NCBI GenBank assembly: GCA_964016885.1
Contig: OZ024741.1
Span: forward strand, 211,234,001 to 211,298,000
Source: Eledone cirrhosa
Taxonomy: Eukaryota
Direction of reading: 5' to 3'
DNA: 64,000 nucleotides
The stretch's first letter is position 1, and the number at the start of each line of letters is the position of its first letter. Positions 2,681-51,599 of the stretch are shown here, one piece after another. The notes beneath the pieces were generated by a model. It saw only the letters and a program-made list of their open reading frames with translations, ran no database searches and was not told the DNA's origin. Both the position numbers and the translations under genes were made by a program.

Positions 2681-2843
2681 ATATATATATATATATATAT
2701 ATATATATAAGTAGAAGTGGTATTTAATTTGTTGGAAGTCCGATAAACATAAATGTTATAACTGATTTAGAGCACTCAACAGCTACTGGAGTAAATATTC
2801 AATGATATTAAATAAATGGAAACTATATTTATAAAACCATATT

Positions 2844-2909
2844 TATTTTATTATATATATTTAAAAGGTTAACCAACATAACATTGGTACGCTTTCATCA
2901 GATAAAATA
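2844..2909 (-). ncRNA. Degenerate type-I hammerhead motif (GAAA mutated to TAAA)
   Basis: Reverse complement: tattttat-CTGATGA-...-TAAA-tatat-ATA-ataaaata. Homologous to the intact motif at 8892-8957. Confidence 0.6.
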
Positions 2910-3290
2910 CAAAGTTAGTTTTATAAATAGAGACATACCCATGAAAATCATACCTTCTCGGGTGGAAATTCACTGGATAGTGGAAATATATTAAGGATTA
3001 TTCAAACTTATGTCTGAATATGCAAATTAATATGTAAATAATTGAAAAACAACCGTTTATTTAAATGACACTGGAGAAAGAGTGAGAGAAAAAATAAGTG
3101 GATAAAGATAAAAAATATTACGAGAGAGATAGAGAGAAGAAATTAACAAAAGGATGAATAAAATCATATAACGTTAATTTAGGGGAATATATTCTAAGTA
3201 TATATCTAATATCGTGTAATTACGATTAATTAGTTGTTTAAAATTCTTTTCAAATATATTTTCTATTATAAGTATATAGAAAAATAATTG

Positions 3291-3456
3291 TTTCTATTTT
3301 AGGCACACGGCCAGCAATAACCCAATACATTACTGGTACTTTATTTTATCGACCCCATAAGGATGAAAGGCAAAGTTAACCTCGGCAGGATTTGAACTCA
3401 GATCGTAAAGGGATGTAACTATGCTGGAAAGCATGTCCGACCCTCTACCGATACTG
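3291..3456 (-). mobile_element. SINE family A inserted in the PLE 3' region
   Basis: Reverse complement of the 1606 SINE. Flanked by a duplicated attttct[a/g]ttataagtatatagaaaa at ~3259 and ~3457. Confidence 0.88.
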
Positions 3457-4213
3457 ATTTTCTGTTATAAGTATATAGAAAATAAATAAATAGATAGAAA
3501 AATAGATAGAAAATAAATAAATAAATAAATAGCAAAATAAATAAATAAATAAATAAGTAAATAGATAAATAGATAAATAAATGAATATATGAGTATATCG
3601 TGTTATAGATAATTGTTTTAATGAGTTATGAGGGATATTGGTTTTGTATTTAATGTAAGAAAATATTAAGTTGAATTAACTTAAGTTAACTGAGTTAATA
3701 AGAATATTCATATTTATATATTTTAAAATGGGAAGATAGGGAAAAAACTCCAGTTTTATTTATTTATTCGTTATTATGAGACTATTTTGTCAAAATAAGT
3801 ACAAATGTTGAAAGATATATTTAGCCAGAATAAGTTAGTGATTATAAATCAAATAAAAGATATTGAACAAATATAAATTTAAAAAAAAATTAATTTATAA
3901 GAGATAAGTAATTTTTAAAAAATAAGTAATTTTTAAAAATAGATAAAAAATTAAAGAAATAAAAAATAAAGAATTAAAAATTATTAAGATTAACATTACA
4001 ATTAAAATTAAAATTAAAATTAAAATTAAAATTAAAATAAAAAAAAATTAGAATTATATATGTATATATTTTATGAAACTTTAAGAATTGAAATTATAGC
4101 AAATGTTATAGATATAACTTAGAGATATCAATATATTAAAACCAAGTGGATAAGATGGTTATGGAAATAAGTAGAAATATTATAAGTGTAATTATAATTC
4201 ATATATAGTTCTA

Positions 4214-5038
4214 AATGTTTATTTCCCAAGTTAAAGAATAGTCCATATTTTTGCATTTTAAGTTCCATATCAGGTTTGAAAGAGAAGTTGAAGATTTTTT
4301 ATCAAATCTTTGGAAAGAGCATTTGTGATTATTTCAGCGACTTTTAAATTCTGTAGAAGTTGCACCGACATAGTTAAATGTATTATCACTAGTTTTAACT
4401 GTACATTTATAGACCACGTCCTTATCTAAACACTTATTTTGTAAAGGACAGTTTAATTTAATTCTACAGTTACATTTTGCAGAGTTGTTGTTATTTAGAA
4501 CGGTACTATTATGTTGGGTATTATTAGAGATATTACTGCTATTTTGGTTAGGGTTTAAATTTCTATTATTGATTCTATTTATATTTTGTGCTATGTTCAT
4601 AGTAGTAGAGTAAGATAGTTTTATAGTATGTCTGTTAAAGATTGAGTGGTATCTGTGCGCTTTAGGAAAACATTTATCTAGTGTTTTAAAGAATAGCTTT
4701 GCTAAAGGTGTTTTAACGCTTAATGAGAATGGGGGTGAGTACCAAATAATATTTTTAGTTCTATTTCTTCTATTAGTTTTAGGGTTTAAGTTAGATTTTT
4801 TATTGTAATTATAATTTATAGTAGAGTTATTTGCCTTATCACTGTTGTCGATGTATTTAATCTTATTTATATAGCCGGCTCTATTTAAAGCTTCATTATA
4901 ATAGTTTGCCTTATCGTCAAAAATGTTTTTATTAGCGGAGATGCGTGAAATACGTTGTTGGATAGAATTAACAATAGTGTTCTTGATAGATCTAGGATGA
5001 TTAGAGTTAAAACTTACACAGTTTAGATTCTCATTCAT
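4214..5038 (-). pseudogene. PLE ORF fragment: RT C-terminus, Cys-rich linker and GIY-YIG endonuclease
   Basis: SNHPRSI, WYSPPFS, IFNRHTIKLSYS, CNCRIKLNCPLQNKC, VVYKC...YVGATSTEFKSR. Homology continues past the TGA at 4334 (NNHKCSF...SLSNLIWNLK...YSLTW). Confidence 0.88.
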
Positions 5039-5234
5039 TTTATGTGTTAAGGTTTAATTTAAAAAAAAAGTTAACACTTTTATAGTTATTCTCTATTTCT
5101 AACTTAAGTTAAGGTTGTAGCTATTGAAGAATTGTATTATGGATTTTCTTTTTCTATTAATTTCACAATTACTATGATTACATATGTTATTAAATAGGGT
5201 ATGATGCAACACTGAATCCTTGTTTCTTATCCTG

Positions 5235-5810
5235 ATATATATATATATATATATATATATATATATATATATATATATATATATATATATATATATATAT
5301 ATATATATATATGTGTGTGTGTGTGTGTGAATGTGTTTGTCCTTTCCCCACATTCTTGACCTCTGTCTGCTACTCCAGACACTGACCTCCTACTTCTATC
5401 CTTTATCCACCTGTCTTTCTTCACTGTCCACTCCCTACCGTCTCTGTCACACTACTATGAATCAGTAACTTATAATGTCTAACATTACTTTTTTGCCCTT
5501 TCCACGTTCACACACAAACACACACGCGGGCACATACACACACACATACATAGACGCACAGACACACACACGCACATACGCTCACACACACACGCGCACA
5601 CACACACGCATACATACACACACACATACGCACACACACATACGCACACGCACGCATACACACATACACGCACACACACACACATACACACATACACACA
5701 TACACCCACCCATATACACACGGGCGCGCACACACACACACACACACACACACACACATATATATATATATATATATATATATATATATATATATATATG
5801 TATGTATGAA
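5235..5810. repeat. (TA)n/(TG)n/(CA)n microsatellite cluster
   Basis: Directly visible. Confidence 0.95.
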
Positions 5811-49147: not shown

Positions 49148-49149
49148 TA

Positions 49150-49498
49150 TATATATAAATGAAAAGTATGGAAATTATTGTAGCAAGAAGCCAACAGTAT
49201 TCCATAATATATAAGTGACTATAGCGTCAAAATGGAAAAATAGTTAACGTAAGAGGTGGGAAAATAATTCAAACTAAATTAAAAAAGAATCAGGATATAG
49301 ATTCATCCACATAATTTGGTGAAATCCTGGGAAAAATCAATAGAGCCTTAACTCAGAATAAAATAAAGTTTAAAATACTCATCCTTCAATTTGTAAAAAC
49401 TACCAATGCTCTGTATAGTCTTAAAAAAGACTATTTCGCGAAACTTTCAGTGGGGATGGTCACGGTTGGAAATAGATCATCAGCAGAGCTCAAAGACA
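49150..49498 (-). mobile_element. Second copy of the 7802-8638 family, with hammerhead at 49408-49489
   Basis: Reverse complement aligns with ~8292-8638, including stems I and III. Confidence 0.88.
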
Positions 49499-50568
49499 TA
49501 TATATATATATATATAAAAATTTATATATATATATATATATATATATAAGAACAAAAGATGGTTAAAAGAGTTCCATGTATTTTATTATGCGCATTTCAA
49601 AAACAAATATCATCATGCAATAATATTTGTGTTTTCATCAGATAAAACAGGAAGACATGATATGAAGGTTAAAAATCACTTGTGGATAGTGCAGTTTTAA
49701 ATCAACATATGAAAAGTAGTTTTAGATTGATGTGTGACATTGGGAAAAATATTTTATTTTGAGGGGGGGGGATGAAAAAGAGGAGGAGATGAGAGTAAAA
49801 AGTGGAGAGGGAGGAGTATAATGAGGAAGGATGAGATAGGAGGAGAGATGGGTGATAGAGAGAGAGAGATAGCTTTTATAACTGAGAAAGATATATAGAG
49901 AGGTTGAAAACCGTTGGAAGATAATGTATAAATTAAAAGAATTTGAAAATTAACGAAGAGAAAAATAGTGTAAAGTTAAGGTTTGTATATTGAGGGGTTT
50001 AATAATCTGTGCGATGAAACCGAAATGTTAATATGTATTAAGAATAATATTTAAGGGTTTAATAACATGTGCGATGGAAAAGAAAAAGTTAATATGTATT
50101 AAGAATGATATTTAAGGGTTTAATAATATGTGCGATGGAAAGAAAATGTTGATATGTATTATTAAAAGAACAACAGGTAATTTAAGTAAGGATATATTGT
50201 GAGATGAGCATGAATGAGTTAGATGAAAGGGAGAAAAAAATAATGAATTGAGGATGAATAATCTAACGTCAAAAAAATATTTGTTTACGAAGGATTTTTA
50301 CAAGGTGATATAGAGTAAGAATGTATTGTATTATCTAATAATTGATTCTATGTTAGGCAACAGTGAGAAAAGGTACAGATTAGGGGTTAGACATTAAAAG
50401 AAAAAGAGAAGAAAGGGAAGTGATAAATAGGAGCGATATAGAATGAGTAACAAGTATTATAGAATGTACCTTTGAAATAAGGTAGAAAGATGGGTATATT
50501 TTTAAAGAAGTGTATATATGTATATGTGCCTTTGAGAAAAAGATTCTAAATTGATAAAGATTTGGATA

Positions 50569-50890
50569 TTAGCTGTATACTTTGTGGAATGTTTTGTGGA
50601 ATTTATGCAAGCAGATAGAAAACAAGTCAGTGCGTCTATTTATTATAGAATCTAAATTAGATATAATGGTAAATTTTTCATTTAGACAGAGATTGCAAAT
50701 TTTGGATAGAGAACTGTTCAAGTATGAATTCGCAGAAGAAACCTTCTTCCAAAAGATGCTATATTTAATATTTTTGTCTTTCAAGGACCATATGCGTTCT
50801 GAGAGAGCCGTGTTGGTTCTTTGACGAGTTTTAAAAGAGGTGGAAGTGGAGCTAAAATAGGTGAAGGAATTGGTGTCAGTTATAACACAT
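50569..50890 (-). pseudogene. GIY-YIG endonuclease C-terminal remnant of a PLE
   Basis: TYFSSTSTSFKTR, TALSERIWSLKDKNIKYSIFW, CNLCLNEK, INRRTDLFSICLHK. Confidence 0.85.
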
Positions 50891-51315
50891 GTTATTAAAC
50901 CCTTAAATATTATTCTTAATACATATTAACATTTTCTTTTCATCGCACATATTATTAAACCCCTCAATATACAAACCTTAACTTTACATTATTTTTCTCT
51001 TCGTTAATTTTCAAATTCTTTTAATTTATACATTATCTTCCAACGGTTTTCAACCTCTCTATGTAAAATAATATATCTTTCTCAGTTATAAAAGCTATCT
51101 CTCTCTCTCTATCACCCGTCTCTCCTCCTATCTCATCCTTCCTCATTATACTCCTCCCTCTCCACTTTTTACTCTCATCTCCTCCTCTTTTTCACCCCCC
51201 CCTCAAAATAAAATATTTTTCCCAATATCACACATCAATCTAAAACTACTTTTCATATGTTGATTTAAAACTGCACTATCCACAAGTGTTTTTTAACCTT
51301 CATATCATGTCTTCC

Positions 51316-51386
51316 TGTTTTATCTGATGAAAACACAAATATTATTGCATGATGATATTTGTTTTTGAAATGCGCATAATAAAATA
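51316..51386 (+). ncRNA. Type-I hammerhead motif (mirror at 49579-49649, minus)
   Basis: tgttttat-CTGATGA-aaacacaaatattatt-gcat-gatgatatttgttttt-GAAAT-GCGC-ATA-ataaaata; all three stems pair. Confidence 0.85.
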
Positions 51387-51599
51387 CATCGAACTCTTTT
51401 AACCATCTTTTGTTCTTATATATTATGTATACTCCAGTCCTACAAACTGTAGAGTGCTTCTTATCCGATATCTGCATTGCTTTATTGTACTACAATAAAA
51501 CTCACCTCCTACATATATATATATATATATATATATATATATATATATATATATATATATATATATATATATATATACACATATATACATATATATATA

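Follow-up and report, generated by a model that had tools for sequence, protein, structure and literature searches.

Paired covarying hairpins in the leaders of Hydra-clade Penelope-like elements lie just downstream of two classes of insertion ends

The stretch of 64,000 nucleotides of Eledone cirrhosa contig OZ024741.1 analysed here (the window) carries predicted hammerhead ribozymes within mobile elements. An original prediction, made from the letters alone, noted that a small hairpin, ACUC...GAGUGCU, recurs 3' of the ribozyme in five diverged elements. The question raised by this locus is which elements carry the hairpin and what it marks. We describe it as one of a pair in the 5' untranslated regions of Penelope-like elements assigned to the Hydra clade, in which each hairpin lies just 3' of one of two places where inserted copies mostly end.

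The hairpin is repeated in the window and throughout the genome

All five copies were recovered on the strands first noted (Table 1), their starts having previously carried one extra 5' base. The strict pattern ACTC-N(6-25)-GAGTGCT has six matches in the window compared with 0.17 expected, and at least six matches occurred in 0/100 shuffled sequences. The sixth strict match, beginning at 1788, is a true member of the motif, and a relaxed scan of the window yielded three further members, for a total of nine. Three sub-patterns of the motif have 13,575, 9,674 and 11,485 matches in the genome (3.0 Gb), whereas the reversed patterns have 6, 107 and 2. In 800 kb of unbiased DNA, 32 motifs were found versus 0-3 in each of ten shuffles. 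These counts in the window, the genome and unbiased DNA, set against their controls, rule out chance or a simple-repeat artefact as the origin of the motif.

Four copies had been placed about 50-60 nucleotides past the predicted cleavage site, and the measured distances are 59, 56, 60 and 52 nucleotides; the hammerhead that precedes the 2792 copy is mutated (GAAA to TAAA). The copy at 8004 has no hammerhead directly upstream and lies ~268 nucleotides past the cleavage site at 8376, as placed by homology to 8293-8645. The motif is always on the strand of the hammerhead, at distances of 25 to ~268 nucleotides from the cleavage site.

The hairpin occurs twice in the leaders of Hydra-clade elements

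Copies that extend past the motif lead to one open reading frame (ORF) for a reverse transcriptase (RT) with a GIY-YIG endonuclease, and this ORF has the features of the Hydra clade of C-terminal-endonuclease Penelope-like elements. Members of this clade share DKT, RW(K/R) and CxCX5C motifs, a hammerhead in the pseudo-long terminal repeat (pLTR) and (TA)n targets (PMC8557442; here and below, statements on published work refer to the accessible parts of each source). The change from DKG to DKT is seen as SDKTG in protein P0001 and in the ORF of the window, and DK[TS] is present in 108/109 aligned relatives. RW[KR] and the CxCX5C linker are each found in 104/109 relatives, and, as in the clade, GxK[FY] is nearly absent from the first 120 residues (1/109). 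GIY-YIG, CxxC and CxH are present in P0001 and the window ORF, and CCHH is absent by eye. The predicted hammerhead in the pLTR and insertion at (TA)n likewise agree with the clade. Tandem periods of 3.54 kb (L244) and 3.7 kb (L245) exceed the clade trend of <3 kb, which is general rather than strict. The host elements are thus Hydra-clade Penelope-like elements as judged by these motifs, not by a tree. No Pfam family matched the Hydra-clade ORF of the window. Locus L244 carries intact ORFs of 717 and 719 amino acids within its tandem.

The leaders of these elements have the order hammerhead, hairpin 1, hairpin 2, AUG. In every ORF-bearing family traced, hairpin 2 begins 78-99 nucleotides after hairpin 1 and lies 15-63 nucleotides before the AUG. 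A pattern that includes both hairpins has 2,712 matches genome-wide, compared with 653 for its control; because loci were chosen by this pattern, they reveal twins in many families rather than in all. The original prediction had overlooked the second copy, the upper stem described below, and the association of the motif with insertion ends rather than with the ribozyme. Its proposal of a cis-element shared by autonomous and non-autonomous members has held up, since the motif precedes Hydra-clade ORFs and is also present in two non-coding tandem families.

Hammerheads were called by a descriptor that has 55 matches in the unbiased 800 kb and 2 in the reversed sequence. Twelve of the 55 have a motif downstream (one double-counted), 31 were assigned by BLAST to motif families, and 12 belong to other families. 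Inspection moved 7 of the 31 to a motif-less family, which gives 36/55 in motif families and 19/55 without the motif. No hammerhead family appears among the 150 of 232 Rfam matches listed for the window, nor in two focused scans; those listed are only microsatellite-driven microRNA matches, with none for the hairpins. At the gathering score, Rfam has no match for the hairpin leaders, which give only matches with E of at least 1. A search of public runs with the L244 leader listed no RNA holder, and no relative was found among viral contigs.

Two variations on this leader deserve mention. In the leaders of L202, L210 and L244 and at 32930-32990 of the window, hammerhead core variants begin with U (UUGAGAA, UUGAAAA) and have a long stem II; short arms of this family end within stem II, and a transcript starting there would have an incomplete ribozyme. 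Loci L238 and L239 hold an apparently non-coding hammerhead element with both hairpins intact.

Most insertion ends fall at a fixed offset before a hairpin

Self-comparison revealed that partner copies stop just before the motif. Ends were mapped on 13 references with both hairpins by using 3' ends joined to (TA)n, with class A ends located before hairpin 1 and class B ends before hairpin 2. The ends cluster 6-9 nucleotides ahead of a hairpin: upstream ends lie at positions -14 to -3 of hairpin 1 in 95/114 cases (modes -8 and -7), and downstream ends lie at -14 to -3 of hairpin 2 in 111/124 (modes -6 and -9). Each end was placed at the first base of its TA run, and this run overlaps with TA of the template. 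Eight outliers at -66 derive from a reference aligned over the ribozyme only, and hairpin 1 of two references is misplaced by a few bases. These offsets are held although the spacing between the hairpins varies from 78 to 99 nucleotides among the ORF-bearing references. In the unbiased 800 kb, (TA) runs of at least 4 units occur 30-85 nucleotides downstream of 27/32 motifs, compared with 5.8% of random places. Contigs from public runs, possibly of the same organism, have (TA)n loose ends at L244 positions 8241 and 8161, which are 6 and 4 nucleotides before the two hairpins.

The two classes are combined in a regular manner. Among 60 inverted insertions, 56 join an A end to a B end, none joins two B ends and 4 join two A ends (three of the 4 ambiguous via the ribozyme-only reference); one arm is double-counted in this tally. 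The loci were enriched for B ends, and frequent B+B insertions would thus be expected if the arms were independent. Either arm can exceed 1 kb. The idea that long arms of ORF-bearing elements always start at A was rejected, because among 11 spans >600 nucleotides the A arm is longer in 6, the B arm in 4, and one is ambiguous. Short arms often share an upstream stop past the hammerhead site, at about -71 in one family and at about -180 in a second one, and this stop is possibly the 5' end of the RNA. No copy includes the hairpin that marks its own end, and this hairpin must therefore be read from a template.

The upper stem of the hairpin covaries

The motif consists of RCUC, an upper stem of 1-6 base-pairs with a variable loop, a 3'-side bulge U(U/A/C), GAGY and then RC(U). 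Its ends are fixed and complementary, as first described; its interior, described as merely variable, contains a covarying stem beside a fixed 2-nucleotide bulge. To examine pairing, instances picked regardless of the upper stem were clustered by downstream sequence into 32 clusters, and pairs were counted on the 13 clusters with at least two members (19 singletons were excluded). For the first three pairs of the upper stem, 38/39 can form, compared with 26.3±2.0 when partners are permuted (0/10,000) and 7 or 15 when they are slid; some clusters are related, and the permutation figure is therefore not a probability.

At the closing lower pair, A-U is exchanged for G-C: the form GCTC..GAGC-ACT has 16,843 genome matches versus 187 for its control, whereas the unpaired A.C form ACTC..GAGC-ACT has 1,104 versus 377. 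Cluster majorities include G.U pairs but not A.C. Alternative tails ACC, ACA and ACG also occur (46,060 versus 11,534 for the control). On folding of six window copies, five adopt the structure as drawn, though weakly.

The twin arrangement is retained in distant relatives

An independent test of the twin arrangement used 77 metagenomic loci found by protein at 35-43% identity, among which 54 matched from the protein start, 46 of them with 135 nucleotides or more of upstream sequence. At least one motif is present in 33 of the 46 leaders (antisense 2, in-ORF 3) and two motifs in 27 (antisense 0, in-ORF 1), the fixed letters being partly imposed by the search pattern. The hairpins are 43-83 nucleotides apart, and the spacers align barely above shuffles (0.28 versus 0.25). 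The motif could have proved no more conserved than neighbouring sequence, and this is not what was found: it persists in 33/46 leaders whose spacers are unrelated. The upper stem of the distant hairpin 1 is paired at 73/81 positions (permuted 47.2±3.2; G.U 6, A.C 1), and slid controls for the distant hairpins give 18-24 and 23-40. Sequence before each hairpin is AT-rich, like the target, and six repeated leader copies in these relatives enter (TA)n or (ATTT)n 0-6 nucleotides before a hairpin.

Inspection by eye of File S7 of Craig et al. 2021 (PMC8557442) revealed clear copies of the motif in 3/6 Hydra consensi, with one copy each in Hydra-2_Amil (coral) and Hydra-2_Ajap (sea cucumber) and two in Hydra-1_Ajap (sea cucumber), whose consensus begins two bases before hairpin 1. 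Hydra-1_Crog has degenerate forms, and the Hydra-1_Amil consensus stops before the motif region. No motif-like sequence was seen by eye among the matches listed for the Naiad/Chlamys consensi (42/42 for one term, 30 of 44 for three others).

Two features of the metagenomic contigs were also observed. In leaders among L252-L325, the 3' flank often reads GAGC-ACUCU, placing CUC on either side of GAG, such that alternative pairing or contact between hairpins is possible. Contigs L252, L259, L268, L271, L273, L280, L292, L323 and L325 carry a terminal exact repeat of their own leader, as would be expected of collapsed tandem arrays or circular molecules.

Two non-coding tandem families carry the hairpin

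The family of the 8004 copy is a non-coding tandem repeat with a unit of ~630 nucleotides, a type I hammerhead and 992 motif copies. Its longest ATG ORF over two units is 97 codons, on the minus strand, and the window holds two separate insertions. Its hairpin 2 retains the stem and bulge but lacks RCU, which is replaced by UUU. Ends joined to TA lie at A in 37/38 cases and never at B, and 46/48 loci contain a single strand only. A second family has a unit of ~580 nucleotides (L384:1511-2090), 932 copies, a hairpin and no clear hammerhead; a by-eye likeness of its GC-rich stretch to a hepatitis delta virus-like ribozyme received no Rfam support. Sampling by hairpin 1 gave no locus of this family with both strands. 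In both families the used end has a TA patch at the offset and the unused end does not, and both fit a pattern in which one start is lost and the inverted arm is lost with it. Loss of the RCU tail alone, which the 8004 family had suggested might abolish end B, is not a general explanation, since the ~580-nucleotide family ends before its degenerate copy.

Non-LTR retrozymes (PMC7229834; bioRxiv 10.64898/2026.07.22.740005) resemble the 8004 family as non-coding head-to-tail repeats with a type I hammerhead. However, its unit is larger than the retrozyme monomer of about 200-400 nucleotides (PMC7229834), and possession of the Hydra hairpin, together with ends at site A, sets this family apart from described retrozymes. 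No hairpin is mentioned in the accessible text of either source. Because this repeat has both the hairpin and the site-A end, these features name its likely mobilising partner and signal, and the hairpin explains how non-coding hammerhead repeats could be mobilised.

Each hairpin probably positions a start of reverse transcription

What is observed directly is the arrangement of the hairpins as twins, their covarying structure, the existence of two end classes and the rule that inverted insertions combine one end of each class. We hypothesize, with a probability of roughly 65%, that each hairpin is an RNA binding and positioning signal that makes the RT-endonuclease of the element start copying just upstream. 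Among the roles first suggested, recognition by the RT or endonuclease fits the data, whereas a promoter or a processing signal fits poorly.

The element protein would nick (TA)n on both strands, and the active site of the hairpin-bound protein would be placed 6-9 nucleotides upstream of the hairpin. Each nick would prime at a short AU/UA patch 6-9 nucleotides 5' of a hairpin, annealed to the nicked (TA)n. Complementary DNA (cDNA) started at A would then contain neither hairpin, and cDNA started at B would contain hairpin 1 and the spacer, which would be the one-sided 'tail' (78-99 nucleotides here). The two cDNAs, made on opposite strands, would extend in the 5' direction across the uncut hammerhead and be joined head to head. 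Less firmly, the two hairpins might engage two subunits of a dimer, and the presence of a usable priming patch might decide which site fires. B arms >1 kb would require that hairpin 2 follow a complete 3' region, and hence that the template be tandem or circular, which agrees with a published proposal of circular templates (PMC4209133).

Several observations weigh against this hypothesis. Both arms copy the same leader, which requires two templates or strand displacement, and the model does not account for this. In the ~580-nucleotide family, 21/21 (TA)n-joined ends lie 90-104 nucleotides past the start of the intact hairpin, before the degenerate copy, and none lies before the intact one. Having an intact hairpin is thus not enough, and the site used does not strictly require a canonical one; this argues against the simplest rule, in which every start depends on an intact hairpin of its own. 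Predicted stabilities of the window copies are low (-2.9 to -10.2 kcal/mol), and 1/6 adopts another fold. No motif was found in 13/46 distant leaders, although several of these are not true leaders or have more diverged forms. The upper stem of the distant hairpin 2 is weak (61/81 paired versus about 47 when permuted; second pair 16/27), and Hydra-1_Obim has at most a degenerate motif (PMC8557442). The start of a Poseidon element lies inside an AC-rich stem-loop without target homology, unlike Hydra-clade ends (PMC11167929), and Craig et al. attribute the tail to resolution by the endonuclease (PMC8557442).

The same end map would be predicted if the hairpins were read as DNA, with the GIY-YIG endonuclease cutting single-stranded sense DNA or an extruded intermediate 6-9 nucleotides upstream, such that A and B are resolution cuts. 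In addition to the proposal of Craig et al. for the tail (PMC8557442), plasmid cleavage by the Penelope endonuclease reportedly depended on the tail (as cited in PMC11167929), each hairpin is preceded by AT-rich, target-like sequence, and CTC, GAG and RCT are fixed in sequence. Yet internal RNA starts at both tail boundaries have been measured for the Poseidon protein (PMC11167929). Moreover, G.U pairs are kept while A.C is rare, and the one-sided bulge fits a single strand rather than a cruciform, a description that single-stranded sense DNA could still satisfy. We regard cutting of DNA as unlikely.

It is also rather improbable that the hairpins serve only to recruit the RNA to its own protein, for packaging or translational control at the AUG, while UA patches annealing to the (TA)n primer set the ends. 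The location of hairpin 2 close before the AUG is compatible with such a role, as is the fact that the two non-coding families end at a site with a TA patch whether or not its hairpin is intact. However, leaders are AT-rich throughout, and the ends are nevertheless confined to a narrow range whose offset from each hairpin stays the same whatever the spacing; a role in translation also leaves the retention of the hairpin in non-coding families unexplained.

An internal promoter element, or a hammerhead accessory that makes a tertiary contact or stabilises the cleaved RNA, might be suspected from a motif that is always on the strand of the hammerhead and often 50-60 nucleotides past the cleavage site. 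This is very doubtful given that the distance ranges so widely, that 19/55 hammerheads in unbiased DNA are in motif-less families, that the pairs covary as a duplex-DNA promoter would not need, and that the end map is left unexplained. Shared ancestry without function, suggested by the derivation of many genomic copies from few families, is refuted by retention of the motif at 35-43% protein identity beside spacers at 0.28 versus 0.25 for shuffles, and by compensatory pairs.

The positioning hypothesis can be extended, tentatively, to paired target-primed reverse transcription, in which a dimeric RT-endonuclease works on two portable ~25-nucleotide hairpins. Each hairpin would dictate, from the 3' side, where one start is made, and the two starts would be on opposite strands of a (TA)n cut. 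Penelope-like elements are the closest mobile relatives of telomerase RT. If this extended scheme is true, then the tail, inverted arms and tandem pLTRs would all follow from one RNA code, and possession of the hairpin would lead to insertion of any RNA, as happens with the non-coding repeats. Positioning of the template by an element that is not itself copied would be a design that connects these RTs with telomerase, and it may hold for Penelope-like elements in general, with sequences particular to each clade.

Comparison with known systems

Small bulged stem-loops bound by an RT to choose and start its template are known from the 3' ends of long and short interspersed nuclear elements (LINEs and SINEs) and from hepadnaviral epsilon. 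Those of LINEs are located 5' of the start and become part of the copy, and epsilon templates a protein primer from its bulge. By analogy, the twin hairpin resembles these RT-recognition stem-loops. However, the Hydra-clade signal differs in being 3' of the start (each end lies 5' of its hairpin), omitted from that copy, paired, and tied to opposite target strands.

The closest biochemical data concern the Poseidon element PAc, whose protein in vitro nicks both strands and uses two internal starts that bound the tail (Frangieh et al. 2024, PMC11167929). RNA 3' of the starts is required, hammerhead cleavage is dispensable, and both target strands are extended (PMC11167929). The elements studied here share with PAc two discrete 3' ends that bound a one-sided tail. 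In contrast to the repeated covarying hairpin just 3' of each end in the 5' untranslated region, with a TA patch at the junction, the accessible account of PAc treats a single element, defines no conserved motif, and places a start in an AC-rich stem-loop within the ORF, without target homology (PMC11167929). The Hydra-clade ends have neither that stem-loop nor a 30-40-nucleotide tail; they are AT-rich with TA overlap, and spacings are 78-99 nucleotides here and 43-83 nucleotides in relatives. The tails here are also longer than the 30-40 nucleotides given by Craig et al., in whose main text the words 'hairpin' and 'stem-loop' do not occur (PMC8557442). Letters in the PAc template figure (PMC11167929 supplement 1) include two small GGC-N6/7-GCC repeats 41 nucleotides apart, about the tail length; the Poseidon clade may have a twin signal with another sequence.

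No description of the motif was found in full-text literature or Rfam, a coverage outside of which lie subscription papers, Repbase reports and figures that could show it. The in vitro work with PAc mapped two starts and no signal (PMC11167929), and start choice and one-tailed inverted-arm insertions of Penelope-like elements now become testable through a defined motif. A covarying, twice-repeated motif at a fixed offset to both ends also yields a rule for annotating element boundaries, and RNA-templated insertion at (TA)n could make use of the hairpin as a compact handle.

Other features of the window

The positions of the hairpins and their host copies are collected in Table 1. The ORF at 21164 has no hairpins because its leader is missing.

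Table 1. Hairpins, insertions and Hydra-clade coding remnants located in the window
Feature	Position	Strand	Remarks
Additional hairpin 1, 6-bp upper stem	1788..1818	+	(TA)n 60 nt later; other repeat inserted just before
Hairpin 1, 5'-truncated Hydra-clade copy	2771..2792	-	59 nt after mutated hammerhead; (TA)n end B near 2710; twin and ORF family at L233, L234
3' part of Hydra-type RT/GIY-YIG ORF, CxCX5C, broken	4334..5053	-	Upstream of 2771 hairpin
1.3 units of ~630-nt retrozyme-like hammerhead repeat	7801..8645	+	(TA)n at end A
Hairpin 1 of ~630-nt repeat	8004..8028	+	Upper stem GGA/UCC
Degenerate hairpin 2 of ~630-nt repeat	8097..8118	+	RCU to UUU
Type I hammerhead, full stem III	8302..8382	+	Predicted cleavage after 8376
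Inverted two-arm insertion	8668..9092	both	Minus arm ends A (8668); plus arm: hammerhead 8900-8949, hairpin 1, ends B (9092)
Hairpin 1	9006..9028	+	Upper stem CAA/UUG; full family L206, L247
5'-truncated Hydra-clade ORF	21164..23356	+	DKT, YRDD, CxCX5C, GIY-YIG
Inverted two-arm insertion	29470..29780	both	Plus arm ends A near 29780; minus arm: hammerhead 29669-29620, hairpin 1
Hairpin 1	29533..29559	-	Upper stem includes G.U pairs; related full element L231
Additional hairpin 1, GAGU-ACU form	32993..33019	+	25 nt after GUC of variant hammerhead; intact family member L244
Additional hairpin 1	43993..44019	-	Same family as 32993 copy
Second ~630-nt repeat insertion	49146..49498	-	Ends at A without hairpin
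Inverted two-arm insertion	49533..51514	both	Minus arm ends A (49533), GIY-YIG 3' fragment 50569-50925; plus arm: hammerhead 51324-51378, hairpin 1, ends B (51514)
Hairpin 1	51431..51458	+	Upper stem CAG/CUG; full family L012, L014, L030, L201
Additional hairpin 1, GAGU-ACC form	63257..63285	-	

Another hammerhead family is represented at 40193-40770 by an inverted insertion with two ends 61 nucleotides apart, and no such hairpin is present in its tail or likely continuation. A DKG-type Penelope ORF lies in pieces nearby, at 41428-43202. An abundant motif-less hammerhead family, present at 29240-29300 and at L093, L099, L107, L141, L146 and L193, has (TA)n 126-132 nucleotides past the cleavage site, behind a different hairpin. 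Finally, two LINE copies that are related to each other lie in the region 54722-61923 and have endonuclease and RT domains (Pfam matches at 58222-60189); they are unrelated to the hairpins.

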